Shown here: one piece after another, positions 22,701-57,641 of the stretch | How the letters are laid out: the number at the start of each line of letters is the position of its first letter | Position numbering within the stretch: position 1 is the first letter of the stretch | Sequence record: OQ032511.1 | Strand: one strand, 5' to 3' | Length of the DNA stretch: 64,000 nt | Source of the DNA: Acinetobacter phage nACB1 | Made by a program: the position numbers and the translations under genes | Notes under the pieces: model-generated | Told to the model about the DNA's origin: nothing | The model's input: only the letters and a program-made list of their open reading frames with translations | Databases searched by the model: none

Positions 22701-25700
22701 ACTAAGCAAATGCCTAGTGACTTAGAGATTAATTACTTCTCTGATCTTGAAGCGCCTGAAAATGTTAATGGCTTAAAAGAAGCAGTGGATAACAATAACC
22801 CTGCTTGGTTCACTACAGGTAAGGACGGTAAACCACAGATTAATATTCTACGTTCTGATGCTCCTATTCGTGCACAGGTTCTCGTACATGAGCTTGTACA
22901 CGCTATCACTGTAGATTCTATTAGTCAGGTTCGTAAAGACCCTACAGCGCACGCTAAGGCTGCAGAATCACTAGCTAAGCTTGATGCGCTCTATGAAGAT
23001 ATTAAAGCGAAAGTAAATGCTGATCCTAATGCTACTGACTTACAGAAGTATGCAGTTAAGAATGTAGAAGAGTTTATTGCTACTGGTTTCTCATATCCTG
23101 AGTTTGTTGATTACCTAGATAGCCAATTGGCTCCTAAAGCAGCTCGTGGTAAGAATCGTATTGTTACTGCATTACGTTCATTTGTAGATAGTATCCTAGG
23201 TGTGCTTGAGAGCTTCACAGGGCGTAAGTATTCAGCTAAAGATGCAACTGCACTAGAAGCATTAATCATTGACTCTACAGAGTTCTTAGGACGTGCTCCT
23301 ACACAAACCACTGGTACTCAAACAAGTATCTTTGGTGCACCACAGCAAGCGCGTAATACTGTAGATGGTTACACTGCTTATGAAGTATTTAGTACTTTAC
23401 CTAAACATGCTAACCCACAATTCCAAGCTCATTTGAATCAGATGATGCGTCAGGTTGCTGACACAATCTATTCAGGTTTAGATCAAAAACTTATTGATAA
23501 CAATGATGGTGCTTGGTCTATTGAGAAAGCATGGGAAGAATACACAACTGCAGGTAATGCTGAGACTACCGAGACTGCTGTAACTGCAGGCTTCCGTATG
23601 ACTGAGCAAGAAGCATTTGCTGTTGAGTCTATCTATGCAGCTATGGTTCATGGTTTAAAAGATAAGTCTATGACTCAGGTGTATGCTGAAATGAATAAGG
23701 CATATAACTCTGCTAAAGCTAGACTTAAACCAGAGAACTTCTATCAAGGTGATTGGGCTACTGCTACTCGTCAAGATAAAGCTGATGCTCAAGATATGTA
23801 TGATTACTTCTTTAAACTAGGCCCAACTAATAAGCAGCACTTAGCTCGCTTTATCTCTATGGCTCTAGGTTCTGAGCAAGTAAATAGTATGCTTGGTTTT
23901 GCTGTTAAAGATACTTCTACAGCTCCTTCAAATACATTTGAAAACATTGTTGAGAAAGCTAATACCTTACTTGATTTTGTTGGTGGTGTATTAACTAACA
24001 GTAACTCAGCTCAGAATATTAATAACCGTGTTGGTCTTCTTGCAAAAGAGTTAGCACGTATTGATATGAAGAATCGTGAACATGCTGTTGGTCGTGTTGA
24101 AGCACAGTTAGAAGCTATTGCTGATTACACAGATGGTGTATCTAAGAAGTTACGTGAACGTGTTGTTGAATTTGCAGATAAAGATGCGATTGCTAATAAC
24201 CGTAATACTTATGTACGTCTTGCAAGTAACACTACGCGCTTAGCTGCTAAAGGTGATTTGTGGACTGTACTCGATACATTGAAAGAAGCTAACAACATTG
24301 ATAATCCAAATAGTACCTTAGGTATGATGGGTGAAATTATTAATGAAGCTGCCAACAATGACTCTACTAAAAACCATGTAGAGAAGATGATGCGTATCAC
24401 TAAGTTAAATAACCAAATGAAGGAGAACATTCGTCATACCACTACTAAGAATGTTATGAGCACATTTGAAGATAATGGTCAGTATCTTACTAAAGATCAT
24501 AAGGCTGCTCTTACTACTATGTTACGTTCTGATGTACAGGTGTTGAGTACTACATACTCTACTAAAGAGATTGCTCAGTTATACACTGATGGTAAGTTCT
24601 TACAGAATGAAACTGCTGCAGTAGTTAATCAGCTTAAAGCTTTAGGTGGAGATCAAGTAATGATTAACCGTGCTAAGCAATTAGCTAAGTATATGCTTAC
24701 TGGTAATTCATCTATTGGTTTAGCTAAGAATGCTCAGCTTATTGTTTCTGGTTTTAACTCTGGTGAAGTAGTTGATCTGACTGACCCACGTGTTGACTTG
24801 GTAGATAAACTTGCAACTATGTATGCAATTGAATACACAGATAAAGGTACTCGTAATCGCCTTGGTGAAGTGTTTAAGCGTGAGCTTAAAAACAAAACTA
24901 ATGGTGTAGATACTTCTATCAAGTTCCATCATGAGCTTTCTAAAGAAGCACGTAATAAGTTATTCGTTGATAATGCTACGTCTGTTGTTAAAGGTTTTGT
25001 TCCTGAGATCACTAACCCTAACAAAGAAGTTCGTATTGCTACTAACGATACAGAAGCTCGTCTATATAAAGAGCAGTACTATCGTGAAGTTAAGTCTATG
25101 GTTAAAGACAAGTCTGATAAGACTGGTGCTACTCCTCGTTTATTTATTACTGATGAAGCTAACGTACAGCGTTTAGTATCAGGTGCTGTAGAGATTGTTT
25201 CTACTAACCGTAAAGGTACTGGTGTAAACATGGATGCTAAAGAATTTACTTATGCTGTTAATAGCGTACGTATTCCTAACAGTCCATTATATAACCCTAT
25301 GCTTGATCAAGATGTTTATATGGTTCCTAACTACAATACTCAGAATGAGGTAGTTGGTTTCTCTTATGAAATGTCAGGTAATAACCGAGATAGTTTATTA
25401 GAGCGTAACAATGATTTCTCTGAGTTACTTGGTGCTTATGCTGCAACTAACTTTAACAAGGTTACTGTTCCTGATCAGAACAATAAAGTTATTGATGCTG
25501 CTTACCAAGACTACAAAGATAACTTTGTTAATAACCCACGTGCTTACATTACTGTAGGGCCTGGTGCTACTAACCCTGCATTGGCAGAGACTTGGGCTAT
25601 GTTGCCAGAAGATACACGTAGATACATTGAATCTAAGTTTGGCCCAGATGGTATGGTAATTCGTAATGATGTTTACTTAACTATGTTTGGCTACCGTAAA

Positions 25701-26714
25701 TATTCTTTAAACCAAGCATTCGATAAGATGCCTGAAGCACGTAACATGTTTGAGTCTATCTACACAGATGTTATGAATACTCTGTTTGGTGGTAAGGCTC
25801 GCTTACGTGGTGTACAAGGTGAACGTGCATGGCAAGAAGCTGTAAGTACTATGAAAGATATTATTGTTATTCGTAACGTTAAGACTCTTATTGGTAACAC
25901 TATCTCTAACGCTTTATTGTTATCTGCTCATGGTGTGAGCTTTACTGATATTGCTAAAGACACTGCTACATCTATTCGTGCAGGATTACAGTACCGTCGT
26001 GACATGGCTAACTTGTTATCTATTCGTCAGAAGCAGAAAGCAGGTGTAGGTGATTTCAATAAACTAGAGCAAGAAGCTTTACGTATTGAAGATTCAATGA
26101 GTCGTAACCCATTAGCTGACTTTATCAATGAAGGTATGATGCCTACTATTGTTGAAGACTTAGACCCATCTAATGACCACTACTCATACAAGTCTAAGTT
26201 ACAAGAGCGTATTGATGGTTTAACTACTGATGTACCTAAGTCTGTGAAGACTGCAGCTAAATGGTTAATGGTATCTCCTGATACTCCGTTGTACCAGTTC
26301 TTGAATAATGCTACTCAGTTCTCTGACTTTAGTTCTAAGTATGTGTTGTATAAACACTACACTACTAAAGCTAAAGAAAAGCTAGGACATGAAGAAGCTA
26401 TTCAGATTGCTCAGGATAACTTCATTAACTATGACATTCCTACTTCACGTGGTTTACAGTATCTGAATGATATGGGTGTGGTAATGTTTACTAAATATAA
26501 CTTACGTATTCAGAAAGCATTATTCCAATTGATGAAGAAGCGTCCTGCTTCTGTAATGGCTCAAGCCTTATTGATTGGTACTCTTACTAATATGGAAACT
26601 GCTATTGACCCTATTGTGTTTACACAGTTTGGTAATCCGCTACGTACTGGTGCATTTGGTTTACCAAGTGCTTTAGATGAACCTCTTCCTATTAAGATGC
26701 TTACTGGACTGTAA
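16716..26714 (+). CDS. virion-encapsidated RNA polymerase (N4 vRNAP-like)
   Basis: Single 3332-aa ORF. T7-like single-subunit RNAP motifs occur in order: GFESDGVTNGP (motif A, compare T7 HQDGSCSG), KRKGAKPIVTTSNYGAG (motif B, K-x8-YG) and TQNYHDANAS (motif C, HD). The Gly/Ala-rich N-terminal region is typical of ejected proteins. Confidence 0.9.
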   Translation: MADYKSLQVSDALSRITNQLKPQVTYGSLGSSVYGRNTNTPDAIAADQQAIQQGQQYYNSIYGKTGSDYVQDAGVALAKGVVSVPQAAAGIVDLLDAGAQFATGQDVQGGRFSKNLADVGVDFATTQDIMSGWFSEGTQRQMQELAALPGMSTEQSLGQNLNSLGSTLGYVADNPSIALNTIIQSLPSIAAGGVVGRGAAALGARGAAGAIGEGTIMSGQAQANMERNAEGYTTGQQALGALGIGVLGGLVGQAGNRIAATRGAADIDQVAAGVGSQAANQGFKSLTVGTATEAAEEAAQSALENVITNVSSGKDAIQGLNQDLVLGTLAGAGMGAAVNAKSSIGTAALEAVQNAANKQIERAKEKISREAPEQTDTPTEQFTDPSSPSYNPSAALVREAKKLTEATTPEEQLDVRNSFNYIMEEQEAYLGGLIETRDAVQNIDNLRQSIVNADAAVERFAESDPAKAEQIAAISANLKEQVAVAEQFIGNEQTLDAHIAEVETKVQEARDIHTRYDSLMQRATTNDETMDTQIFGAPQKFTPEQIEKAINDPKVPEASKPALRALADAVVAQNAVKNIDAVNQQITGKQYDSNYRSTPQYLAQFTRAIKQGNTAQQVNLMREIGAFEQSHVQKAEIVQQGLELASSGQPVQIIRNQDGSWAFNQGEWLSRTAAKKNGAITIASPKQIEAVTKTSEYMQAEAQAITATRNAMEQLDVLNNPNGSVVRPSNVATQSTPETQEVPTQQATDFQAAIDELNSLERDNYDYQPQRRVEDPRESLSQPSFDGAINAESQVPTGTQSTSGTMSSGDTSQVQTPTNTEGTTPVAKAERVASRSVSEDVATEVQTSTEAATQATNEETTEEVVTPEVKKEAEPQDINTVEKADKNPARTAERAKEPKKRNLVIDGFNQRDTVLNRNENFVKRFMNRSNIAPVVESITGKAPTPKQEQALKDFTNFANYFDSKLDIIGSKQEDFRFQDFNQFLLVDGKLPDNVKTAVSAAMYSWIAENGSKTLNTERDVAGLLLLNDIDTLPTTVFNAFTGIGDHQSVVTGSLGQKALEALGLKVVSDVDPARKQKLEQALGTLAAVALTQNGYLEHTAMSVAEFELHQAYAQNANEGSTFGDQTFKGGKTINFLVPKAGKKVDQVIKSAAETQGIVQSLFGVQRDIKLPSLEPVTSTPQSFNRMGSELPSYTKDMLEAAQSNGYKMSIPAMQFMDNVKQDDLLELFGFIKPNADGVSFDGMHKKFWKSQLASNEAVERAVAIIKEQRANLGDDSKEFFFEHTSWTNTRSGYDSAFNLQANKMHRAVAGMSAHVVEVGIEAPIKNGETTKFGEFLMAVAMGAEGASDVMGIQTVDKVSAETFLPKFQEYLAQDYVQAGIESMAAAIETKPTKQDMDNIKRVVTEFDMGPMSVRALQALAQMHIAERDGQRTFTSDIGFESDGVTNGPVITNVALNTADAQMLEAGGIFTSRAKSNVPTNKEQGNEDIYEQLGGVMQAEWTAYKKAVKGGALDSALGLDVIYSAFGKRKGAKPIVTTSNYGAGIASIKRANAREVLNAFYTGLESAGKKGDIGAAQDLINAVNKTIKYSNFKQKLSTPLAVAKGDVMEFLLTPEQEAALFFAADLQHGEAIKETLSKAMAGFNEVRDNLTEQAVTGFKIYELIRQNAINEALKNTDGVLVDGKGKRQEGLTADQMKAVLKSIERYTPSVVSGMGNLSSNKKKSSIPLMKQDTVWDGSAMSEQQFKFLGSWQQSGTKEFSVRSAIKRDAVSDPGVSGLALIIQSIDAMIAHTTIGKMPTQNYHDANASAVGQGKAMAKIQNEAFVDGVMHTHVNREFARALMNPLTLVLDNKAFYTANKDEINDAMKGIFMSQKVATAYERDLAKLTGMLKWVNVNQYGTQGGHFQMTNAKRKEILDEIAQLKKDYAKDAALAKRIDEIVESGSEPQTVEEHLRQNIIMTGKEVVPLLQAELKQFQGKEGQVGKFSQFYDSILDLVTKQMPSDLEINYFSDLEAPENVNGLKEAVDNNNPAWFTTGKDGKPQINILRSDAPIRAQVLVHELVHAITVDSISQVRKDPTAHAKAAESLAKLDALYEDIKAKVNADPNATDLQKYAVKNVEEFIATGFSYPEFVDYLDSQLAPKAARGKNRIVTALRSFVDSILGVLESFTGRKYSAKDATALEALIIDSTEFLGRAPTQTTGTQTSIFGAPQQARNTVDGYTAYEVFSTLPKHANPQFQAHLNQMMRQVADTIYSGLDQKLIDNNDGAWSIEKAWEEYTTAGNAETTETAVTAGFRMTEQEAFAVESIYAAMVHGLKDKSMTQVYAEMNKAYNSAKARLKPENFYQGDWATATRQDKADAQDMYDYFFKLGPTNKQHLARFISMALGSEQVNSMLGFAVKDTSTAPSNTFENIVEKANTLLDFVGGVLTNSNSAQNINNRVGLLAKELARIDMKNREHAVGRVEAQLEAIADYTDGVSKKLRERVVEFADKDAIANNRNTYVRLASNTTRLAAKGDLWTVLDTLKEANNIDNPNSTLGMMGEIINEAANNDSTKNHVEKMMRITKLNNQMKENIRHTTTKNVMSTFEDNGQYLTKDHKAALTTMLRSDVQVLSTTYSTKEIAQLYTDGKFLQNETAAVVNQLKALGGDQVMINRAKQLAKYMLTGNSSIGLAKNAQLIVSGFNSGEVVDLTDPRVDLVDKLATMYAIEYTDKGTRNRLGEVFKRELKNKTNGVDTSIKFHHELSKEARNKLFVDNATSVVKGFVPEITNPNKEVRIATNDTEARLYKEQYYREVKSMVKDKSDKTGATPRLFITDEANVQRLVSGAVEIVSTNRKGTGVNMDAKEFTYAVNSVRIPNSPLYNPMLDQDVYMVPNYNTQNEVVGFSYEMSGNNRDSLLERNNDFSELLGAYAATNFNKVTVPDQNNKVIDAAYQDYKDNFVNNPRAYITVGPGATNPALAETWAMLPEDTRRYIESKFGPDGMVIRNDVYLTMFGYRKYSLNQAFDKMPEARNMFESIYTDVMNTLFGGKARLRGVQGERAWQEAVSTMKDIIVIRNVKTLIGNTISNALLLSAHGVSFTDIAKDTATSIRAGLQYRRDMANLLSIRQKQKAGVGDFNKLEQEALRIEDSMSRNPLADFINEGMMPTIVEDLDPSNDHYSYKSKLQERIDGLTTDVPKSVKTAAKWLMVSPDTPLYQFLNNATQFSDFSSKYVLYKHYTTKAKEKLGHEEAIQIAQDNFINYDIPTSRGLQYLNDMGVVMFTKYNLRIQKALFQLMKKRPASVMAQALLIGTLTNMETAIDPIVFTQFGNPLRTGAFGLPSALDEPLPIKMLTGL

Positions 26715-39987: not shown

Positions 39988-40036
39988 TATTCGTAACATC
40001 ACTTCATTGACAGCACTTGCTCAAGCATTAGCTGAT
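39927..40036 (+). repeat. Exact 55-bp tandem direct duplication (2 copies)
   Basis: 39927..39981 is identical to 39982..40036 (aggtgatattcgtaacatcacttcattgacagcacttgctcaagcattagctgat). 55 is not a multiple of 3, so the extra copy shifts the frame by +1 and creates a TGA. Confidence 0.85.
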
Positions 40037-43000
40037 TACCGCGTTAAGACTGATCTTGAAATTAATAATGAACGTATTGCGCGTCAACAGTTGGGCGTAG
40101 ATTTAAACACACGTGTTGATGATTTTGTTAGTACATTTGATCATAAATTTGTAATGGTCTATCAGACTATTCAAACATATCAAGATGAGACTAACGGTAA
40201 ACTCACACTGTTTGATGCACGTATTAGAAAATACGAAGAGATGCTTCAAGACATCACTACAGATTCTATTCAGATCACTATGGATAATGGTGAGATCAAT
40301 ATGGGTGCGTGGACTATTTTGTCTCAAGCACGTGAATGGGATTTAGAAATCTTAGCTAACTTCAAAGATTATAAAACTCAAACCGATAAAGATATTGATG
40401 AAGCTTTGAAAGATATTCAAGATAAGCTTCCTATTGAACAAGACATTATTGATAAAGCTATTGAAGCTTTGTCTGATGCTCAGATCATCAAAGACTTAGA
40501 TGCTAAGATTGATGGCAACATTGCTGACATTGATACTGTACATCAGCAGCTTATTGCTGAGGTAAACAATCGTCAAAATGAGATGATTGATTACAGTCAG
40601 ACTATTGCTAATGAAATGCAGAAGAATCAGAACGCATTAGTTACTATGGTTCAGACTGAAGCTGAAGCTCGTATTGATGCATTACAGCGTGAGTCTGCTA
40701 TCCGTCAACAAGAACTAGTTAACGAAGCTGCAGAGCGTAGTGCTGAGATTACAGAGCGTATTAAAGATATTGAAGCAGGTACTGGTGCAGATTTAACTGC
40801 AGTAAACCAACGTATTGATGAAGCTAATCTCTACATTGAATCTGTTAAAGATACTCTTGATACTGAGCGTGATGAACGCTTAGCAGATATTGCTACTCTT
40901 GATGATGGTTTAACTAAAGAGATTCAATCACGTAAAGATGGTGATACTTCAATCACTACAGCTTTAAATAACTATAAAGCTTCTAATGACGTAGCTATGG
41001 CTAACTTCCGTGATGAAGTAACTGTGGTTGCAGAATCGAATGCTGCTACTGTAACTAAAGTAAACGCATTAGATGCTTCACTTAAAACTACTAATACTAA
41101 GCTTGATCAGACTACTGCTACAGCAGGTACTGCATTAGATAAAGCTACCTTAGCTCTTACTGAGACAGGTGCTCTAGCGCAGCGTGTAACGCAGACAGAA
41201 GCTAATATTACACAGATCAATAAAGATGTAGCCACTAAAGCTAATGCTTCTACAGTGACTCTCCTAGAGTCTCGTGTGGAGACTATTGATGGTGAAGTAA
41301 AAGCATCTACTAAAGCTATTACTAAATTAACTTCTGACTTAACTACTGTTCAAGGTGAGCTTGATCAGAAAGTAGATGCGTCTGTCTTAGACTCATATTC
41401 AACTACAGTTCAAACCGACAAAGCTATTGCAGATCGCGTACAAGAGTATGATGCGAACTTATACATTGGTGGTCAGAATATTTGGTCTGTTGTAGATCAA
41501 CCTGTAACTAATGAAGCAGGTGTTGCTACTAAGACAGTAGTAAACCAAGGTGAAGAACACTATCGTATTATTATCAATTCTTTTGCATCTAACCGTATTG
41601 TTACACGTTTGGATAATGCACTTGTTGATCGTGGTTTTATTTTTAAAATTGGTGATGACTTCACTGTATCATTTGAAGTACGTGCAAGCCGTAATGCCCC
41701 TGCATCAGGTATCTATTACTACTTTGGTGGTAGTGGATCATTTACATCTAATTTACCTCTAACTACTGAGTGGGTACGTTATGTATTCCCATTGAAAGCA
41801 ACTGGTACTGGTGTAGGAAGTGCTACACAAATGTTTGGTACAAGTTTCTTTAGCACAAGTGGTTGGGCAGTAGATGACTGGGTTGAGTTCCGTCATGTAC
41901 AAATGCAACGTGGTAAGAAGGCTACTGAGTTCCAGAAAGCTACTGCTAAAGTGCAGCAAGGTATTACAACCAATGCTACAGCTATTACTGGTATCAAAGC
42001 TGAAGTAACAAACCATGAAGGTCGTATTACTTCTAACAGTAATAGCATCACTGCACTTACAAATACTGTAAGCCAAACTAATAAAGACTTAGCTACTAAA
42101 GCTGACTCTAAAGCTGTAGCTGATCTTAAATCTCAAGTAGATGTTATGGATGGTAAGATCACATCCAACTCACAATCTATTGTTATTCTTAATAATGATG
42201 TGACTACTATCAAAGGTGATATGCAGAACATGGCTACTACTAGTGCATTACAAGCACTGGATAGTAAGGTATCTGTAATTGATGGTAAGACTACGTCTAA
42301 CACTAATGCAATTACTTCTCTTCAAGGAAGTGTTAATACTATCAATAGTACTTTAGCTACTAAAGCTGATACCTCTGCAGTTAATGCATTGAGTACTACT
42401 GTTACTCAACAAGGTACACAGATCATTGCTAACAGTAATCAGCTTACTAACTTGAGTGCATCTATATCAATGTCTATGCCTGAAGCTAAAGTTACAGGTA
42501 CGTTGGATGGTATTAATTTATTCACACCTTATATTAACAACTCAAATATTAACTTAGTTGATGAAGCTACTGCAGTATCAGGTAAGGTAATACGTATTGG
42601 TGATAACTCAGGTAATGATAACATTGCAGGTATCAGTAATGCTTATGTAGCAATTGATCCTAATAAGTTATACCGAGTTAAGTATCGAGTTCGTCGTGTT
42701 ATTGGTGATGGTACTATTTACTTATCTGTCGTAACAACTAATGCAGATAAGACACGTAACGTAATGCATACCAACTCTGAGACTGCACTTACTGATATTA
42801 GTAATTCATTATATTACGTGGGCAATGCCGCACCTGCCTTAGGTACATGGTTAGAGGGTGAATACTTTTTTAAAGGTAAGTCTGCAGGTACTTCTGGTGG
42901 GACAGGTACAATAGCTTCTCCTCGTACATTCCCTGCTAAAGCTGCATATATCCGCTTAGGTATTCTACCTAACTTTACAGTTAAAGCAGGCCAACAAGAT

Positions 43001-46000
43001 ATTGACTATATTATCTTGGAAGATTATGACGCTATGTCTTTAGGTGATGCTAATGGTACAGCCATCACTAATCTTGGTACTCGTGTAACTAATAACGAAG
43101 GTGCTATTGATGTACATAGTTCTCAGTTAACTAACCTTACTGGACGTATTAGTACTGTTGAAGGTGGTTTAACAACTAAAGCTGATTCCTCTGCGTTGAG
43201 TGCTTTGGAAACTAAAGTTACTGCAGTTGATGGGAAGGTATCTACAAACACTAATGCCATTACTTCTTTACAAGGACGTGTTACATCTGTTGAAGGTACG
43301 TTAAGTACTAAAGCTGACGCTTCTGCATTAGCTAATTACTACACTAAAACTCAAACTGACAGTGCAGTAGCAGGTGGTATCAATGCTTACAATACTTCGT
43401 TGAGTGTAGGCGGGGATAACTTATGGAGTCTTGAAGGTTCTACTAATTCTAACGAATTTGGTGTTACTCAAAAAGTACTACAAGATTCTACGATTGATGC
43501 TCATAGATTTACTGTGTCTAGCTTTACAACGAATATTGCACGTATCCGAAACCAAGACATGATTCCTAATGGTTATGATGGCCAATTAGCTGTTGGTGAG
43601 CAATACACACTTACATTTAAGATTCGTGCTAGTCGAGCTGCTGCTGCAGATTACTATGCTTACGTTGGTGAGACAGGCTTTCCTAATGTAACAACACCTC
43701 TTAGCTTAACTGAAGATTGGCAGACTATTACATCTACATTTACTCTACGTGCTACAGTTTCTACAAGTATTCGTCAGATGTTCTGTGTGACTTTACGCAG
43801 TACAAATGGATGGGCTGTAAATGATTGGTATGATGTTAAAGAGATCATGCTACAGCGTGGTAATAAAGCTACTACTTACGTTAAAGCAGCTGCTAAAACC
43901 AAGCAGTTAATTGACGCTAATGCTTCAGCTATTACTAATACGCAAGCTTCAGTAACTAACCTAGATGGTAAGCTTACTACGCTGTCTACATCAGTAACTA
44001 CGCTTACAGGTCGTGTATCAACTGTTGAGAATGGTTTATCTACTAAAGCAGATGTATCAGCTTTCAATGCATTGGATGCGCGTGTTGTACAGCAAGGTAA
44101 AGACATTGAAACTGTGTCTGCAAGTGTTACTACTGTAAACACACGTATTGATAACTTAGCTATCAGCACTAATAACGTATTACTTAATTCTTACGGTGAA
44201 CGTACAAGTGCTGCACCTACTCAACGTGAATACTTAATGTATGAACGCAGTGTTGCACTTAAAGATTTCTATAATGAAAACTTAGATAAGTTCATTACAT
44301 TAAGTTTTGAAATCAAGGTTCCTGTAGCAGGCCCTGTTCAGGTATACACAAGCAATAACTCTGCACATCAATTCAGTACAGGTATTACTATTACAGAAGC
44401 TGATGTATGGCAGAAGTTTACTTTAAAGCTTGTTCCTAGACCACATCCTACAACTCCTGAGAATGTTGCAGGTTCTACTTTAGAGTTCTATGGTACATAT
44501 GGTACTGGTCGTATCCCTACTATCCGTAAAGCTATGATGGTAGCAGGTGGTGTTGCAGCTGCATGGGAACCATCTCCACGTGATACACAGGCGAGCTTTG
44601 AAGCACAGTCTTCTGCTATCAGTACTTTGGATTCACAGACTAAAGCATTAGATGGTCGTATCATAACTAACGCTAGTAATATCACTACATTACAAGGTCG
44701 TGTTACTACAGCGGAAGGTAAGATTACTTCTAATACAAATGCTATTTCTGGTTTGGAAACTAAGATTACTGAAACCAACGGTAAGATAGATGCACAAGCT
44801 AATAGTGTTACTCGCTTACAGTCTCGTGTGGATAACAATGCAGGTGCAGGTTTATCACAGGATTACTTATGTCTTGATTATGATAGTTGGTATAACCATA
44901 GTAATTTAACTAACTCAATTGCATTGGCTCCATACTTCAATCAAACACTGACAGATGGGCCTTTAGGTGCTAAAGGATTTGCTGCTACTGGTGGTACATT
45001 CTTTATGTACAACAAAACACCATTACCTACTAATAAGACTTATCGAGTTCAGTTCTGGGCTAAGCGTAGCAGTGATACAACTGGTACTGCGTACATTACT
45101 ATCTTACGTCTTAAACCAGGTGAAGCATTAAATGCTCAGTGGTATACATCTATAGCTTTATCAGCTGCAGAGTTACCACGTAATAATACTTGGACTTACA
45201 TTGATAAGATTGTGAACATTACAGGCGGTACTACAACGTATCCTCTTATGTATCTTGGTTTCAGTCTTAACAATGGAGCTTCTGCAGGTACTACAGCAGC
45301 ACAAGGCTTTAAAGTTACTGAGATACTTAACGTAGGTGATACTACTGGTTTAGCTACATCTGATGCATTAACTTCATTGACTACTCGCGTAACAACTGCT
45401 GAAGGTAAAATTGATACTCAAGCAGGTCAGATTACTAGCTTAAATACTACTGTTGCAGGTAAGGCAAATGCGTCTGCTGTAACTAGTCTTGAAGCACGTG
45501 TAACTACTGCAGAAGGTAACATTACTTCTCTTACTACAAGCAGTACTAACCTTACTAACCGTATGACTGCTGCCGAAGGTAAGATCACAACTAACACCAA
45601 TAACTTAACCACTATGACAAATAAGGTTACAGAGATTGATGGGAAAGTGACTGCACAAGCTACACAGATTAACAAGGTAGAATCTACGTTAGCAGGGCAA
45701 GCAATTGGTAGTACTAACTTACACCCTGCAACTATATCAGCTACTACTTGGGAGCCTTACAGCACATCTACAGTAGCTAAAGTTACTGGTGGTTTTAAGA
45801 CTGATTTAGTACGCGTAACTAAGACTGGTGGTTCTGTCGGTGGTGTGGCAACTGTAGCAGCACAACGTAAGATTAACGTACGAACTGGTACACCTATAAT
45901 TGTTACAGCTAAAGTACGTGGTGATGCTATACCTAATTATATTTATATGATGGGTGCATCTGGTACAGCTTCTAACGTTGCAGCTACCTCTATTGAGTTT

Positions 46001-47476
46001 AGTGAACCATTCGGTACTAGCTTCGTAACTATGACTGTTAAATTTAATGGTAATGGTTTTGGCTTCAGAACTAATGCATGGCTCATGATGTCTAACAATG
46101 GTGCTGCATCAGGTACTTGGTTTGAGTTTGCAGAACTTATGGTACAGGATGGAAATACTGCAACTGCATGGTCTGACTCTTACTTAGACGTACCTGAGAT
46201 TGATTTAACTGAGTATGCAAAAGCATCTGCATTAAGCTCATTAGATACTAAAGTAACTCAGATTGATGGACGTGTAACAAGCCAAGCTACTTCTATCACT
46301 CAGCTACAATCTAGTGTTGGTGACAATACATCTAAGCTTCAAGTACAAGGTGAAGTGATTGATGGATTGAAAGCTTCATACTTTGTTAAGACTGATGTGA
46401 ATGGTTTGGTAGCAGGGTTTGGTTTATATAATGATGGTACTAGTTCTGCTTTTGGTGTTAATGCTGATTACTTCTATATTGGTAAAGCATCAGGTGGTAA
46501 GAAACCATTCATTGTAACTACTTCACCTCAAACTATTGATGGTGTTACTTATCCCGTAGGTACATGGATTCATACTGCATTGATTGCTAATGCCACTATT
46601 GGTACAGCACATATTGCAGATGCTTCTATTACCAATGCTAAGATCAATAGTCTTGATGCAGCTAAGATTACTACTGGTACTCTTGATGCAGCACGTATTA
46701 AAGTTGGTGCAGCTACTCAGTATGAGATTGGATATGATCCAATTACTAAAGCTCGTACATTCGTAGCACAACCAGTTACTCCATACCGTGCAGGTGATAT
46801 TTGGAAGAATGGTACTACTACAGCTATCTGTACTGTTACTCGTTTGTCTGGTGCATACGTTGCAGCTGATTGGGGTAAGACTGGTGATGTAACTTCTGAG
46901 AATACTGCAGCTGATACATCTAAAGTTGGCGGTGTCGCTGCAGCTACTGTAAACCAAAATATTACTAATGCACAGACTGCGGCTACTAATGCTGCTACAT
47001 TGGCAGGTAATAAAGGTGAGGTTATCTATGGAACTGCACAGCCTGCTGCTGACAAGCGTTTAGCACAAAACCTATGGATTGATACCACTAGTAATGCTAA
47101 TACGCCTAAGCGTTGGAATGGTAGCGCATGGGTAGCGGTTACAGATAAGGCAGCTACTGATGCTAAGGCTGCAGCTGATGCAGCAGATGCTAAAGCGGTA
47201 GCAGCACAAGTAACAGCTAACTCAGCTAACAACCAAGTTAATGCTTGGAAGTTCACTGGTACAACTGAGATTGATGGTGGTAAGATTCGCGCTGATACAG
47301 TAACTGCTGTACAAATGAATGTAGCTGAGCTTAGTGCTATCACAGGTACACTTGGTACTTTAGTTACTTATAAAGACCCTGCTCAACCTAATAAGGCTCG
47401 TATGGTTATGCAAGGTAGTTTGATTACAGTGTACGATGATAATAATGTTTTACGTGTTCGTATGGGACTTTGGTAA
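40007..47476 (+). CDS. giant tail fiber / receptor-binding protein, main body (continues 39712..39987; about 2560 aa intact)
   Basis: 2489-aa ORF with no ATG or RBS of its own (first codon TTG). Long heptad/coiled-coil stretches (T.NT.AITSLQGRV..., LSTKADASAL) alternate with at least 6 beta-rich modules ending W(A/V).DW.E...MQ.G.KAT. The C-terminus YFYIGKASGG...IDGGKIRADTVTA...RVRMGLW resembles host-specificity / fiber C-terminal domains. Confidence 0.8.
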   Translation: MTALAQALADYRVKTDLEINNERIARQQLGVDLNTRVDDFVSTFDHKFVMVYQTIQTYQDETNGKLTLFDARIRKYEEMLQDITTDSIQITMDNGEINMGAWTILSQAREWDLEILANFKDYKTQTDKDIDEALKDIQDKLPIEQDIIDKAIEALSDAQIIKDLDAKIDGNIADIDTVHQQLIAEVNNRQNEMIDYSQTIANEMQKNQNALVTMVQTEAEARIDALQRESAIRQQELVNEAAERSAEITERIKDIEAGTGADLTAVNQRIDEANLYIESVKDTLDTERDERLADIATLDDGLTKEIQSRKDGDTSITTALNNYKASNDVAMANFRDEVTVVAESNAATVTKVNALDASLKTTNTKLDQTTATAGTALDKATLALTETGALAQRVTQTEANITQINKDVATKANASTVTLLESRVETIDGEVKASTKAITKLTSDLTTVQGELDQKVDASVLDSYSTTVQTDKAIADRVQEYDANLYIGGQNIWSVVDQPVTNEAGVATKTVVNQGEEHYRIIINSFASNRIVTRLDNALVDRGFIFKIGDDFTVSFEVRASRNAPASGIYYYFGGSGSFTSNLPLTTEWVRYVFPLKATGTGVGSATQMFGTSFFSTSGWAVDDWVEFRHVQMQRGKKATEFQKATAKVQQGITTNATAITGIKAEVTNHEGRITSNSNSITALTNTVSQTNKDLATKADSKAVADLKSQVDVMDGKITSNSQSIVILNNDVTTIKGDMQNMATTSALQALDSKVSVIDGKTTSNTNAITSLQGSVNTINSTLATKADTSAVNALSTTVTQQGTQIIANSNQLTNLSASISMSMPEAKVTGTLDGINLFTPYINNSNINLVDEATAVSGKVIRIGDNSGNDNIAGISNAYVAIDPNKLYRVKYRVRRVIGDGTIYLSVVTTNADKTRNVMHTNSETALTDISNSLYYVGNAAPALGTWLEGEYFFKGKSAGTSGGTGTIASPRTFPAKAAYIRLGILPNFTVKAGQQDIDYIILEDYDAMSLGDANGTAITNLGTRVTNNEGAIDVHSSQLTNLTGRISTVEGGLTTKADSSALSALETKVTAVDGKVSTNTNAITSLQGRVTSVEGTLSTKADASALANYYTKTQTDSAVAGGINAYNTSLSVGGDNLWSLEGSTNSNEFGVTQKVLQDSTIDAHRFTVSSFTTNIARIRNQDMIPNGYDGQLAVGEQYTLTFKIRASRAAAADYYAYVGETGFPNVTTPLSLTEDWQTITSTFTLRATVSTSIRQMFCVTLRSTNGWAVNDWYDVKEIMLQRGNKATTYVKAAAKTKQLIDANASAITNTQASVTNLDGKLTTLSTSVTTLTGRVSTVENGLSTKADVSAFNALDARVVQQGKDIETVSASVTTVNTRIDNLAISTNNVLLNSYGERTSAAPTQREYLMYERSVALKDFYNENLDKFITLSFEIKVPVAGPVQVYTSNNSAHQFSTGITITEADVWQKFTLKLVPRPHPTTPENVAGSTLEFYGTYGTGRIPTIRKAMMVAGGVAAAWEPSPRDTQASFEAQSSAISTLDSQTKALDGRIITNASNITTLQGRVTTAEGKITSNTNAISGLETKITETNGKIDAQANSVTRLQSRVDNNAGAGLSQDYLCLDYDSWYNHSNLTNSIALAPYFNQTLTDGPLGAKGFAATGGTFFMYNKTPLPTNKTYRVQFWAKRSSDTTGTAYITILRLKPGEALNAQWYTSIALSAAELPRNNTWTYIDKIVNITGGTTTYPLMYLGFSLNNGASAGTTAAQGFKVTEILNVGDTTGLATSDALTSLTTRVTTAEGKIDTQAGQITSLNTTVAGKANASAVTSLEARVTTAEGNITSLTTSSTNLTNRMTAAEGKITTNTNNLTTMTNKVTEIDGKVTAQATQINKVESTLAGQAIGSTNLHPATISATTWEPYSTSTVAKVTGGFKTDLVRVTKTGGSVGGVATVAAQRKINVRTGTPIIVTAKVRGDAIPNYIYMMGASGTASNVAATSIEFSEPFGTSFVTMTVKFNGNGFGFRTNAWLMMSNNGAASGTWFEFAELMVQDGNTATAWSDSYLDVPEIDLTEYAKASALSSLDTKVTQIDGRVTSQATSITQLQSSVGDNTSKLQVQGEVIDGLKASYFVKTDVNGLVAGFGLYNDGTSSAFGVNADYFYIGKASGGKKPFIVTTSPQTIDGVTYPVGTWIHTALIANATIGTAHIADASITNAKINSLDAAKITTGTLDAARIKVGAATQYEIGYDPITKARTFVAQPVTPYRAGDIWKNGTTTAICTVTRLSGAYVAADWGKTGDVTSENTAADTSKVGGVAAATVNQNITNAQTAATNAATLAGNKGEVIYGTAQPAADKRLAQNLWIDTTSNANTPKRWNGSAWVAVTDKAATDAKAAADAADAKAVAAQVTANSANNQVNAWKFTGTTEIDGGKIRADTVTAVQMNVAELSAITGTLGTLVTYKDPAQPNKARMVMQGSLITVYDDNNVLRVRMGLW

Positions 47477-54165: not shown

Positions 54166-54192
54166 AAGGCAGCCTAGGCTGCCTTTTTCTTT
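54166..54192. terminator. Bidirectional terminator
   Basis: Hairpin aaggcagcc-ta-ggctgcctt followed by tttctttt. It overlaps the stop codon of DNA polymerase exon 2 on the other strand. Confidence 0.65.
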
Positions 54193-54805
54193 TCATGATA
54201 TTTCTTCATTGCAGCATCTACTACATCACAGAGTTCAACTTTAGTAGCTGTTCTTGGTAATGTAATACCATGAGACCAGTTAGGATAGAACAAGTCTAAG
54301 TCACCTCCAAGTTTCACTTCGTCGTGAGCAATCTCAGGTAAGTCTTGCCATTCCATCTCTTTGGTGAGATGTCTATTAACCCATTCAACAACTTCAAGTT
54401 CGTTACTAATAACGAGATAAATTGCATCATGAATTAATGCTACTGGCATAATCTTAAGTCTGTAAGGTGATGCCCAAACTTTCTCCATGAATGCTACTGC
54501 AGCTCGGTTATTCAATAAGCCATATGATTGGCCCATAGCATTACCTGCTGTACGCATCTCTGCTTTAGCTTCATTAGAAGTAAACTTATTACCTAAGATG
54601 GTTTTCTTGAGTAATGGTGTACGTAACTTCAAACCAAAGGCTAAAGTAACATACCCTAATTTACAGGCTTCTTCTTCAATACGTTTCATAATGAAGTCAT
54701 CACTGACTACATAAAGCTTGTGATACATCTCCTCAATAGCTTTCGCTACCTCAGGTGCAAAACCACAGTTCTTAACTAACGTAGACCATGTGCCCATATA
54801 TGTTA
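54174..54805 (-). CDS. DNA polymerase (family A), exon 2 (C-terminal palm/thumb, motif C)
   Basis: The ORF frame extends upstream of the annotated Met to ...TYMGTWSTLVKNCGFAPEVAKAIEEMY. This aligns with the YG-MSAFGLARQL segment that follows motif B in Pol I-like enzymes. Motif C-like LIHDAIYLV follows. Confidence 0.7.
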
Positions 54806-55648
54806 CATTTATGTTCAGGATAGTTCGTTAGGCTACCCCCGCTTTGTTCAAGCTGCTGTATGTCACCATACAGATCAGACTATATCATCATCCTTTCGGA
54901 TGCCTTGCGCTTCCACTCACTTGAGTGTACGAGCTATCGCTCTAGTCGTTGAACCTTACTTGCATTCACTACTGCTAATACTTTCCTATTACGCTCTGCT
55001 CTTTGTTGCTTTAAAGCTTCATCAAGTTGAGCTTCTAATCCTACCTCTTTAGCTATCTTACGAAGCTTTGTAGATAAGAATGGTACTTTATAAGGGACAC
55101 GTTCAGCTAATGCTGCGTATGTCTCACCACCAAGCACACTATGCAAGCAATCAATAAATTCTTGCTTAGTAAGTCTGTTGGTGTAAGCACGTAAACCTGC
55201 TTGTACCGCATGTTGTGAGTTTCCTACGCTATCGACCCACTCTAAGTTAGAGTAATGGTTGTTAAGCTTATTACCATCCTTATGATTTACTTCAGGTAAA
55301 CCGTGTGGATTACTCACAAATGCTTGTGCTACAAGCCTGTGTACATAGAAAGTTTCTGGTTTGTTATTCTTCCAAAGTTGTACAGTTAAATACTCTACAT
55401 CCTTATGAGGATACAAACCTAAGTAATCTTCTTTGTGATTACTGTATATGAGTCCTGATTCAGTTACTGAGTAGTTCTCATAATTTTTAATAGCTAGTGT
55501 GTTCATAAGCATCTCCTATATTTGCTATGGTGTATCTTAATAGCAAAAGTAGGTGAATGCAAGTCTTGGCTGCTGATTGTCTCATTGAGATGTCCCAGCA
55601 ATTCACAAGGTTTTCATTACGTATTTCTACGTAATGGCGCAAACATTT
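54806..55648 (-). mobile_element. Candidate group I intron (about 843 nt) carrying an HNH homing endonuclease, inserted in DNA polymerase motif B
   Basis: Exon 1 ends ...RQDSKAPTFA followed by TAA. The non-coding flanks (137 nt 5' and 128 nt 3' of the HEG ORF) contain three perfect GNRA-tetraloop hairpins (CAUUACGUA-GAAA-UACGUAAUG, CAUCC-GAAA-GGAUG, CUGUAUG-GUGA-CAUACAG) and GAUGAUAUAGUCUGA, which resembles the group I S element AAGAUAUAGUCC. The proposed boundaries, 5' exon ending in U and intron ending in G, restore RQDSKAPTFALTYMG (R-x3-K-x3-F-x3-Y). Confidence 0.55.
54934..55506 (-). CDS. HNH homing endonuclease (NUMOD4 + HNH_3) encoded within the intron
   Basis: Start MNTLAIKNYENYSVTESGLIYS with AGGAGA RBS (the track ORF adds MLM upstream). 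HNH core EVNHKDGNKLNNHYSNLEWV. Confidence 0.8.
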   Translation of the reverse strand: MNTLAIKNYENYSVTESGLIYSNHKEDYLGLYPHKDVEYLTVQLWKNNKPETFYVHRLVAQAFVSNPHGLPEVNHKDGNKLNNHYSNLEWVDSVGNSQHAVQAGLRAYTNRLTKQEFIDCLHSVLGGETYAALAERVPYKVPFLSTKLRKIAKEVGLEAQLDEALKQQRAERNRKVLAVVNASKVQRLER

Positions 55649-57641
55649 ACGCAAATGTAGGTGCTTTACTGTCCTGACGCTCAGTTGGATACTTATCTTC
55701 AATACTGTTGATAGAGTCAACAGAAGTAGGATCAATGTCTGGCATACGATCACCAAAGTAAGCATAAGCACGTAGACAGTGACCATCATAACCATCTGTA
55801 TAAACCTTGAGTTTCTCAGGGTCTTTAGTGGTTAATGCTGAGATACGATCTTCTAATGATGCAAAGTCTGCACCACAGAAAATACTGCCATAAGCTGCTG
55901 CAAAGCATGACTTAATTAGCTTACCTAAATCTCCGCCTGCAGGCAGGTTTTGAAGATTAGGATCACTGGATGAAAGTCTGCCTGACTTAGTTCCTCCAAT
56001 ATTGAATGAACCATGTAGGTAAGCCATACCATCAGCTTTAAGCCATGCATCTTCAAACGCAGGGATAAACCCAGTTAGAATCTTCACAAGCTTGGTGTAC
56101 TTATGGAGAGCTTCCATGACCTCTAATTTCTCAGGGTCATTTGTATGCTTACGTAAAGCCTTAATGACTTTACCTCCAGTTGCTCGCTCACCTGAATCAG
56201 TCCACTCAATGACTGGCATTTCCATAACGTCGTATAACAGTACAGCTAGTTGCTGACCGCTATTAAAGTTCAATGGTTCATTAAACTCATGACGCTCTAC
56301 AACCTTCTTCTTTAAAGAAGCTTGTTTGTCTTTCCATGCCTTAGTCTGAAGCTTGTCAGTAGCTTCTTGGACATACGCATTACATTCCATGATCTGAACA
56401 TAACTGTCTGATTCAGCTTGTAGCTGTGCTTTAACTTCCTGAACACGTTCAGGTATCAAAGGTAAACCATGACATTCAATCTGAATAATCATCCGTAAAG
56501 ATGGGATCATCAAATTGTTATAAATATCTAGTTGTTCCTCAGCTACCATAATTGGATAGTAAGTCTCATACACATAGTTTGTACTAAGTACATCTACTAA
56601 GTTGTATCGTAAGATTTGTTCAGCAGGGATACGACGAATGTCTTTAATGTCATCTTCTGCCCAGTTACCTGCAAATGGTTGTGCAAGTACTTTAAGCCCA
56701 TACAGCGTTTGAGCTGTCTGGTTTAAACTGAGATATGCAATGATCTTGGTATCATCAAAGCAACGTGTCAGAACTTTTAGTCCTGTTAACATACCTTCCC
56801 AATCAAGAGGATGTTTCATCCATAAAGAATGAATCAAACACTTGAAGTCATATGAAGCATTATGAGCTATCAGCTTACCGCGATAACCTTCAAAGAACTT
56901 ACGTAGCAATTCCTTAGTTTTAGTTGCTTCAGCGCGTACGCCGTAGTAACCATCCTCAGGAACAATTGGCTGATACTCTACAAAGAAAGCACAGCCTGTA
57001 TGTTTAGACTCTGCAAATGCAATAGTACCTAAACCTGCATCACGTAGGTTCAACGAGAATGCTTCAATATCTACAGCTAATTGAGGTTGGTTTGACAAGA
57101 ATGCCAATTCCTTTTTCAATGCAGATACTGAGTTGGGATAACGCTCTTCATGGATAATGTCAGAGCCAATCTCTACATAGCTACCATGGTAATGAGTTGT
57201 TAAGGCTTGAAGACTGAGATCAATCTTCTCCTTTTGGTTTGGGTTATGAAACAATGCACCGTAACCTAATGAATAGATCACGTACATATCTTCAAACCCT
57301 GGGATACCACATTCACTGACATAACCTAAGTTAACGTCAGCTTTACGTTCTTTGGCTAAGACTTTGTAATAAGCAGAATCAGCTACAAATAAGTATTTGA
57401 TACCTGCTCGTTTATAGTCATCTAACCAATCAGCAATATATTCTTTAATGAGTGTTACAGGTGCTTTACCTGCACGTGTATAGTCTAAGCTCATCGCTAC
57501 GATTTCTTCACGTGGGATACCTGCATCAACCATAGGCTGAACATAGTACTGAATTAATTGTTGCTCTTTAAAAGCAGATTCCTTGATGAGAATACCAATT
57601 TTTGGGGTAGTGTCCCCATCAACGAACTTTAGTGTCTTCAC
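55649..57641 (-). CDS. DNA polymerase (family A), exon 1 (3'-5' exonuclease plus polymerase motifs A and start of B)
   Basis: Exo I VDIEAFSL. Exo III HNASYDFKCL. Pol motifs SSSDPNLQNLP and CGADFASLEDRI (motif A). Ends within motif B (RQDSKAPTFA). Confidence 0.8.

Follow-up and report, generated by a model that had tools for sequence, protein, structure and literature searches.

Between positions 54174 and 57641 of a 64,000-nucleotide (nt) stretch of Acinetobacter phage nACB1 (record OQ032511.1; this whole stretch is hereafter the window), the minus strand carries a family A DNA polymerase gene that falls into three open reading frames (ORFs), and the element that separates its two coding parts, a candidate group I intron with a homing endonuclease gene, is the subject of this analysis. 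The upstream ORF (57641..55647, 664 amino acids (aa)) contains the Pfam domain DNA_pol_A (3.9e-28) and a 3'-5' exonuclease domain and has the C-terminal end ...RQDSKAPTFA, within the catalytic motif B. The downstream ORF (54797..54174, 207 aa) covers DNA_pol_A profile positions 225-360 and includes HDAIY, which is motif C. The middle ORF (55512..54934, 192 aa) matches the HNH_3 domain (1.3e-6), exceeding the Pfam cut-off. A first-pass annotation made from the letters alone had described the polymerase ORF as ending in ...RQDSKAPTFA with the remainder, HDAIY included, in a separate ORF, and both are found on the minus strand where it had placed them. Judged by its sequence, the phage is N4-like, because it encodes a 3332-aa virion RNA polymerase (16716..26714; phrog_2206 'virion RNA polymerase', 1737 bits), and the best matches of the polymerase are in the Schitoviridae. 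The four parts of the locus, as we read it, are as follows.

55649..57641, minus strand: polymerase exon 1, residues 1-664 and the first base of codon 665, with the DNA_pol_A and 3'-5' exonuclease domains
54806..55648, minus strand: predicted group I intron of 843 nt, subgroup IA-type, preceded by U55649, ending in G54806 and possessing the helices P7.1 and P7.2
54934..55506, minus strand: predicted homing endonuclease gene, 190 aa, I-HmuI-like HNH type, with HNH_3 and a NUMOD4-like N-terminus; alternative start at 55512
54174..54805, minus strand: polymerase exon 2, the last two bases of codon 665 to residue 874 and the stop, with LTYMG and HDAIY

Joining 55649 to 54805, that is, splicing after U55649 and after G54806 as the first-pass annotation had proposed, removes 843 nt and yields an 874-aa polymerase ORF. 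With a slash marking the splice site here and below, the 5' boundary reads ...ACA UUU GCG U/AAAUGUUUGCGCC... and the 3' boundary ...CAUAAAUG/UAACAUAUAUGGGC..., and the apparent UAA stop of the exon 1 ORF consists of U55649, the last exon base, and AA, the first two intron bases. The ligated exons would read ...GCG U/UA ACA UAU AUG GGC..., with motif B restored as R-x3-K-x3-F-A-L-T-Y-M-G and APTFALTYMGTWSTLVK as the predicted peptide that marks the ligated junction. These boundaries coincide with the U that precedes a group I 5' site and the G that precedes the 3' site, and they are unambiguous because a one-base shift of either alters the junction, no adjacent boundary yielding the same one. 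In E. coli Pol I numbering, taken from PMC3428280 and the standard motif B, the insertion site is at ~763/764, in the stretch of the O-helix bounded by F762 and Y766.

Within the phage collection, At2, XC38 and Presley, N4-like phages of Acinetobacter, come closest (~75% nucleotide identity); each has a single uninterrupted polymerase gene of 873-875 aa with which exon 1 is collinear. The alignment with such intron-less homologs that had been suggested as a check comes out collinear for the joined 874-aa product as well: its identity is 78.5% to At2, 74.7% to XC38 and 50.7% to Presley, the alignments with At2 and XC38 are free of gaps around the junction, and the junction peptide KAPTFALTYMGTW is identical in At2. 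At the insertion point the intron-less At2 / XC38 polymerase sequence is CCTACGTTTGCCC/TTACGTATATGGG. The sequence upstream of the internal ATG of exon 2 (54797) contains no Shine-Dalgarno element; the endonuclease, in contrast, has AGGAG.

A complete P1-P10 group I fold can be drawn for the insert, and all of its core helices are mismatch-free in the window copy. Its elements are listed below in the order of transcription (bp, base pairs; MFE, minimum free energy).

55637..55652, minus strand: P1, in which exon GCGU and intron AA (55652..55647) pair with the internal guide UUGCGC (55642..55637)
55615..55636, minus strand: P2, a 9-bp stem with a GAAA tetraloop
55610..55604, minus strand: P3 5' strand, P3 being CCUUGUG with CGCAAGG
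55600..55595 with 55576..55571, minus strand: P4, from the Rfam alignment and covariation
55590..55587 with 55583..55580, minus strand: P5, from the Rfam alignment and covariation
55570..55568, minus strand: P6 5' strand, pairing with the P6 3' strand 54955..54953
55564..55553, minus strand: P6a 5' strand, ACUUGCAUUCAC, pairing with GUGAAUGCAAGU
55516..55552, minus strand: P6b, a hairpin in the P6a loop, found by MFE folding and kept in relatives
54969..54958, minus strand: P6a 3' strand, a perfect 12 bp with the 5' strand, closing around the endonuclease ORF
54952..54948, minus strand: J6/7, between the P6 3' strand and P7
54947..54943, minus strand: P7 5' strand GACUA, the R element, invariant in 8/8 sequences
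54942..54931, minus strand: P7.1, GAGC-GAUA-GCUC
54927..54914, minus strand: P7.2, CACUC-AAGU-GAGUG
54909..54903, minus strand: P3 3' strand, pairing with 55610..55604
54902..54889, minus strand: P8, 5 bp with a GAAA loop
54888..54883, minus strand: J8/7, preceding the P7 3' strand
54882..54878, minus strand: P7 3' strand UAGUC, the S element, pairing with GACUA
54873..54856, minus strand: P9, 7 bp with a GUGA loop
54853..54841, minus strand: P9.1, from covariation and MFE folding
54839..54817, minus strand: P9.2, from covariation and MFE folding
G54806, minus strand: 3' tail with the terminal G, present in 8/8 sequences

Within P1, U55649 and G55640 are the partners of the U.G wobble that marks the 5' splice site. 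Most helices of the model also emerge when each flank is folded by itself (MFE). The two small hairpins between P7 and the P3 3' strand, P7.1 and P7.2, are hallmarks of subgroup IA; both are present, with compensatory changes in each. The structural hints of the first-pass annotation find their place in this model, the three GNRA-tetraloop hairpins that it had noticed being P2, P8 and P9 and its putative S element, GAUGAUAUAGUCUGA, aligning with the Rfam P7-3'/S consensus gAAGAUAUAGUCu; the P1-P9 fold on which it had made its proposal depend can be drawn in full.

The Rfam covariance model RF00028 (Intron_gpI) finds both halves of the insert on the minus strand, the 5' half at 55658..55418 (30.5 bits, E = 5.4e-5) and the 3' half at 55154..54856 (41 bits, E = 3.8e-8) in a 5-kilobase search, and the alignments locate the P, Q, R and S elements. 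Over the whole window the same two matches, with E = 6.9e-4 and 4.9e-7 respectively, are the only ones at E <= 0.01. The core is homologous to that of the td introns of T-even phages, of a Staphylococcus phage feature annotated Intron_gpI and of the polymerase introns of the T7-like phages APK32 and PPWS1, and its P3-P5 part is almost identical to that of a phiKZ intron that itself scores 87.6 bits in Rfam.

Homologs of the endonuclease in metagenomes number more than 1000, and the genomic context was inspected for eight of them with 53-94% identity. In seven, the gene lies between polymerase ORFs, with an exon 1 of 664-671 aa upstream (or a short middle exon if there are further inserts) and a polymerase C-terminal ORF of 188-208 aa downstream; the eighth (P0045, locus L107) is free-standing. 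The loci L015, L018, L021, L024, L105, L106 and L108 have an insert of 837-879 nt at exactly the nucleotide used in the window (..TTY GCR T/...G/TA ACN TAY..), and the intron 3' half scores 40-46 bits in Rfam in all four of these that were scanned (L015, L021, L024 and L105). Among the cultured phages in the collection, none has the window's intron at the motif B site.

We aligned the eight introns, the window's and those of the seven metagenomic lineages, with their ORFs deleted (MAFFT; alignment A1) and counted pairs on the P1-P9.2 model. A standard pair is found in 92.6% of cells, compared with 30-43% when the 3' partners are slid by 1-3 columns, and 51 of the 95 pairs show changes on both sides; none of 500 shuffles attains any of these measures. 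The figures are conservative because MAFFT misaligned parts of P6a/P6b and P7.1. Double changes affect eight of the nine pairs of P2, three of four in P7.1 and all five in P7.2, while P7 is invariant and both the U.G pair at the 5' splice site and the G before exon 2 are present in all eight. In L105 the compensation reaches into the exon: GCG has become GCA, a synonymous change, and the guide sequence follows it (G-C to A-U).

Several of these polymerase genes carry additional inserts. The closest metagenomic polymerase relatives, L015:1-3400 and L105:1-4400, have three HNH insertions, at residues ~603, 614-619 and 664, and L021 and L024 have one extra insert each upstream of the motif B intron, that of L021 holding a second group I intron (Rfam 99 bits). 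The polymerase of the window phage has the motif B intron only.

Two ATGs of the same frame, at a distance of 6 nt, stand at the 5' end of the endonuclease ORF (AGGAGAUGCUUAUG; 55504..55520, minus strand). The second, at 55506, is most likely the start and gives a protein of 190 aa, because AGGAG lies 6 nt upstream of it, homologs are ~190 aa long and the first ATG abuts the Shine-Dalgarno element. The earlier label of a NUMOD4/HNH endonuclease holds for the HNH part, HNH_3 scoring 28.4 bits against a cut-off of 24.8; the NUMOD4 match is sub-threshold in the window protein (12.8 bits against 23.4, E = 0.14), and PF07463 is present in most homologs. The sole sequence match in the PDB is I-HmuI (1U3E, 1.3e-10), the nicking endonuclease of the SPO1 polymerase intron. 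An AlphaFold model (56 homologs, predicted local distance difference test score 89.3) gives one significant fold match and no other, again 1U3E (E = 1e-9), with 38% identity over the N-terminal 112 columns, a root-mean-square deviation of 2.3 Å and a superposing N-terminal beta-sheet region. Residues H75, N87, N96 and H99 are invariant across the 56 homologs. The best PHROG is phrog_59 (1.7e-37), an endonuclease family also found in polymerase introns of the Bastillevirinae (PMC11878797).

The last 12 sense codons and the stop of the endonuclease ORF overlap P6a-3', P6-3', J6/7, P7-5' and P7.1, and the 3' strand of P6b, ...AUAUAGG(AG), includes part of the endonuclease Shine-Dalgarno element. 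Since the ribosome-binding site thus lies partly in P6b and the end of the ORF overlaps core helices, endonuclease translation and ribozyme folding on one transcript are likely to be mutually exclusive. Such a competition is familiar from the T4 td intron, where translation of I-TevI competes with folding of the ribozyme.

We therefore hold with high confidence that motif B of the polymerase is interrupted by a mobile group I intron, of the IA2 type known from phages, that carries an HNH homing endonuclease. The gene would be transcribed as a single pre-mRNA, in which the intron RNA would adopt the P1-P9.2 core structure. A guanosine supplied from outside and bound at P7 would then attack after U55649 (the U.G pair in P1), the released end of exon 1 would attack after the terminal G54806, and ligation of the exons would restore the O-helix motif B and the 874-aa polymerase. 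On the model of I-HmuI and I-BasI, the endonuclease probably introduces a nick close to the insertion site in polymerase alleles that lack the intron during mixed infection, and repair of the nicked allele would copy the intron in.

A number of points weigh against this interpretation or limit its reach. P10 (AACAU with AUGUU) is only 5 bp long in the window, and just 0-3 bp can be found in most relatives. The covariance-model search that the first-pass annotation had proposed gave matches to both halves on the minus strand; neither half reaches the gathering score of 50 bits, and at gathering scores no Rfam family, tRNA included, is matched anywhere in the window. These scores are low because the 573-nt ORF inside P6a separates the two parts of the core. 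Thermodynamic stability does not set the flanks apart: their z-scores are -4.5 and -3.2, and a coding control reached -3.4, so that we dropped stability as an argument for the intron. The C-terminal helical domain of the endonuclease has no significant structural match in the fold search of the AlphaFold model, and residue 74 is Asn, invariant in the family, at the position of the metal ligand Asp74 of I-HmuI; given Asn74, the protein is a putative endonuclease. The anatomy of the locus, its exact boundaries, the conservation of the RNA structure and the homologies can be read directly from the data; splicing, nicking and homing we infer from sequence.

How else might the locus work? A free-standing HNH gene may have broken the polymerase, with the 664-aa and ~207-aa polypeptides associating without RNA splicing. 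A gene caller indeed sees three separate ORFs, phage genes split by homing endonucleases are known, and related endonucleases stand free in other N4-like polymerases (L025-L029 and L107), with no ribozyme signal at those scanned. Yet the break would fall inside the O-helix, between the F and the Y of motif B, and the exon 2 ORF would begin at the Met of ..TYMG.., losing L-T-Y, without a Shine-Dalgarno element. The complete group I core in the flanks, compensated in eight lineages, would go unexplained if the RNA had no function, and the U/G splice rules are obeyed exactly where collinearity is restored; we consider a split polymerase highly improbable. The idea that the intron has decayed, so that its splicing is lost or depends on a factor from host or phage, which leaves the polymerase non-functional or poorly expressed, could draw on the two Rfam scores below the gathering threshold and on the fact that the closest relatives are metagenomic contigs. 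The ORF inside P6a accounts for the scores, however, and every core helix of the window copy is intact and free of mismatches. Moreover, P7, J8/7 and the U.G pair never vary among the eight diverged lineages, in which the other helices covary; this implies purifying selection on the fold. The polymerase exons, too, are intact, with 78% identity to a cultured phage. The probability that we leave to decay is close to negligible.

To an intervening element of another kind, that is, an intein, a group II intron or a translational bypass, we give no weight at all. Phage replication genes do harbour inteins and bypass elements at their catalytic motifs in some cases, and relatives of the locus may use bypass; the insert, however, is out of frame, has many stops and its own start and stop, it matches no group II or other Rfam family, and its 843 nt far exceed any known bypass.

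The free-standing relatives raise a separate question. In nine other N4-like polymerase lineages (L112/L144, L114 (=L025), L115, L116 (=L029), L130, L135, L142, L163 and L107), a relative of the endonuclease (49-56% identical) stands free about 27 codons upstream, at polymerase residue ~637. No ribozyme signal was found with Rfam at the free-standing loci scanned (L025-L027, L029 and L107). About 85 nt downstream of the free-standing gene, at the Thr-Tyr junction of motif B and 8 nt from the window's intron position, all nine have a 5-nt insertion, ..ACN [TAGCN] TAY.., that gives an in-frame UAG, the polymerase going on in the -1 frame (L116:4339-4361 is an example). The third base of the take-off ACN equals that of the would-be landing GCN in seven of the nine, and on GCN tRNA-Thr could pair again with the help of a G.U pair. 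With a hop of +5 the spacing would be back at the canonical F-x3-Y, whereas a slip of -1 would make it two residues longer. The 5-nt insertion is absent from the cultured N4-like phages matched in the collection, and other recurrent matches to the pattern of the gap, such as the 'YVGNTLSYDKAL' group, proved not to be polymerases and were set aside.

We hypothesize that the 5-nt gap in these sister lineages is a gene-60-like translational bypass, a +5 hop. The bypass element of T4 gene 60 with its MobA endonuclease is a comparable arrangement (PMC5009743); our literature search for a gene-60-like bypass arrangement in a polymerase found no report. In the free-standing state, synthesis of the polymerase would require ribosomes to jump the gap, as they do in T4 gene 60 with MobA. 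A competing hypothesis is that the gap is a recurrent repair scar in defective genomes, against which stands the conservation of the insertion across diverged lineages. Possibly related is a ~45-nt in-frame insert with two stops at the same motif B spot in L027 (IMGVR_UViG_3300034072_000840), near CTAACCTGCTAGCC: it contains a perfect 10-bp hairpin, CCCCCTCTCA-TTTAT-TGAGAGGGGG, followed by ACT TAT CAG (T-Y-Q), and its sequence suggests a gene-60-type coding gap of greater length. It is conceivable, though we hold it doubtful, that one endonuclease lineage targets motif B in two states, intron-borne or free-standing with a bypassed coding gap. If true, the family would connect mobile group I introns and translational bypass elements in one natural series, and would provide a second gene-60-type cassette.

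At three of the free-standing loci, L025, L029 and L107, the N-terminal polymerase fragment ends in a conserved extension of ~45 aa (..CYKANVGG..I.FH....YLG....G.ELYELLTNQ..), which intact polymerases lack, and the downstream fragment starts after a conserved EH(N/D). By its sequence the extension does not look like a canonical split intein. An intein or split intein at the free-standing loci was rejected, by sequence inspection only, as the residue after EH(N/D) is L, V or T and there is no continuous frame.

For annotation, the consequence is that 54174..57641 should be described as one spliced DNA polymerase gene with an intron-encoded endonuclease, not as two polymerase fragments. The locus adds Pol I position 763/764, in the O-helix, to the catalogue of intron sites in phage family A polymerases, and the pairing of this intron with this endonuclease is spread over at least eight diverged lineages of N4-like-type polymerases. 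It also speaks for modular evolution on both sides of the partnership: the ribozyme core is common to T7-like and phiKZ introns at other sites with other endonucleases, and the endonuclease family is found both inside the window's type of intron and free-standing. An intron of this kind was to be expected; what would surprise a specialist is the 5-nt coding gap conserved in the sister lineages. Elsewhere in the window, the plus-strand ORF 40007..47476 (2489 aa) has several tail, tail-fibre and baseplate-spike PHROG matches and is unusually large for an N4-like tail protein.

While the type of element is familiar, its exact insertion site and its pairing of intron and endonuclease appear to be undescribed in the literature. 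The sites catalogued in PMC3428280 are 674, 676 and 881 in E. coli Pol I numbering; together with those mapped here, the known insertions compare as follows.

SPO1, SP82, Bastille and Pf-WMP3: 674, the SPO1-type site
APK32, PPWS1 and PhAPEC5: 674, mapped in the present analysis
phiL7: 676 (PMC3428280)
PhiI/W31: 881, in motif C (PMC3428280)
Intron of the window: ~763/764, in motif B
BSTP3 intron 1 (phiNIT1-like): 1 nt downstream of the window's site
BSTP3 intron 2 and Stau2: after the Y-G codons, 14 nt downstream of the window's site

Like the window's, the SPO1 intron belongs to group I and interrupts a family A polymerase of a phage, and its endonuclease I-HmuI is homologous to ours in the N-terminal and HNH part. 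The likeness to I-HmuI had led us to expect a common site, which we rejected: the SPO1 intron (882 nt) lies at ..SSNEPN/AQQFP.., ~residue 560 in window numbering, some 100 codons upstream of motif B. The first-pass annotation had invoked SPO1-like phages as a precedent for introns at such motifs, a point to be qualified, the SPO1 intron occupying the TGRLSSxxPN/xQ motif (Pol I 674) and not motif B. Furthermore, its host group, the Herelleviridae, is unrelated to the window phage, and the C-terminal domain of the window's endonuclease is unmatched. A tblastn match to the SPO1-like phage phi18 that ends at residue 667 is a coincidence, the phi18 polymerase gene being uninterrupted.

The polymerase introns of the T7-like type (Pf-WMP3, PhiI/W31, APK32 and PPWS1) likewise sit in a family A polymerase, and the ORF lies in the P6a loop in PhiI/W31 and Pf-WMP3 (PMC3428280), as it does in the window. 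APK32 and PPWS1 have the most similar 3' core, visibly homologous to the window's (ACGACUA..GUACACUCAAGUGGGUGGAAGCGCA..GAUGAUAUAGUCU..CUGUAUGGGGACAUACAG), the APK32 ORF extending into the core. A site shared with these two phages was rejected as well, since they use the SPO1-type site (TGRLSxxxPN/xQ, as in Pf-WMP3), and their endonucleases are of another HNH type, with a C-terminal HNH motif, unlike the window's.

Motif B is already an intron target in the Herelleviridae, where the polymerases of the Nitunavirus BSTP3, the Silviavirus Stau2 and the Kochikohdavirus EFLK1 are interrupted in the same O-helix motif, and for the phiNIT1 polymerase introns splicing has been demonstrated (PMC11878797). 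BSTP3 intron 1 follows ..TTT GGC TT/, within the same Leu codon as the window's T/TA and 1 nt downstream; EFLK1 is interrupted in the region used in Stau2, its exon 1 frame running past Y-G. Unlike the window's, these introns have other 3' cores and endonucleases annotated 'HTH homing endonuclease', the insertion nucleotide differs, and Rfam finds nothing at E <= 0.01 at the Herelleviridae motif B intron loci. BSTP3 (L110:2040-3500, MW354667) has its two motif B group I introns separated by a mini-exon of 10 nt (..TTTGGCTT/intron/AGCTTACGGT/intron/GAAACA..), and its GenBank annotation shows fragmentary polymerase and HNH coding sequences, some on the wrong strand.

Among N4-like phages, PhAPEC5, U1G, PGN829.1, BEU44, PMBT57, JA-1 and JSF3 have an HNH gene between two polymerase ORFs. 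The DNA polymerase of PhAPEC5 (KF192075, L005) is annotated as 'split by an intron of 672bp' (Rfam match 38 bits), introns have been suggested in those of the Vibrio phages JA-1 and VchO139-I (Fouts et al. 2013, PMC3670811), and a td group I intron was reported in the N4-like phage pVa5 (Katharios et al. 2017, PMC5746245). The first-pass annotation, which named no reported polymerase intron in N4-like phages, is corrected by the annotated case of PhAPEC5 and the suspected ones of JA-1 and VchO139-I, at other sites. In window numbering the insertions map to ~560 (PhAPEC5), 580 (U1G), 595, in motif A (JA-1) and 614 (BEU44), none of the four being at 664/665, and with four different positions in use we rejected a site shared with the split polymerases of other N4-like phages. 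The PhAPEC5 intron lies at TGRLSxSxP/N, as do those of SPO1, Bastille and the T7-like polymerases. The endonucleases of the Enquatrovirus group are just 31% identical to the window's.

The 3' core of the T4 td intron, host to I-TevI, has ~79% identity with that of the window over ~78 nt. The td intron is an IA2 intron with its ORF looped out from P6a, the ORF 3' end running over core helices and the ribosome-binding site sequestered in a stem, all as in the window; it differs in its host gene, td, and in its endonuclease, which belongs to the GIY-YIG family. The phiKZ intron adjoining PHIKZ072 differs in host gene and in the placement of the ORF, with a contiguous core of ~224 nt. Among the cultured phages searched it is the closest sequence relative of the P3-P5 and P7-P9 core (76.8% over the matched pieces), and PHIKZ072 itself is a relative of the window's endonuclease, with 32% identity.

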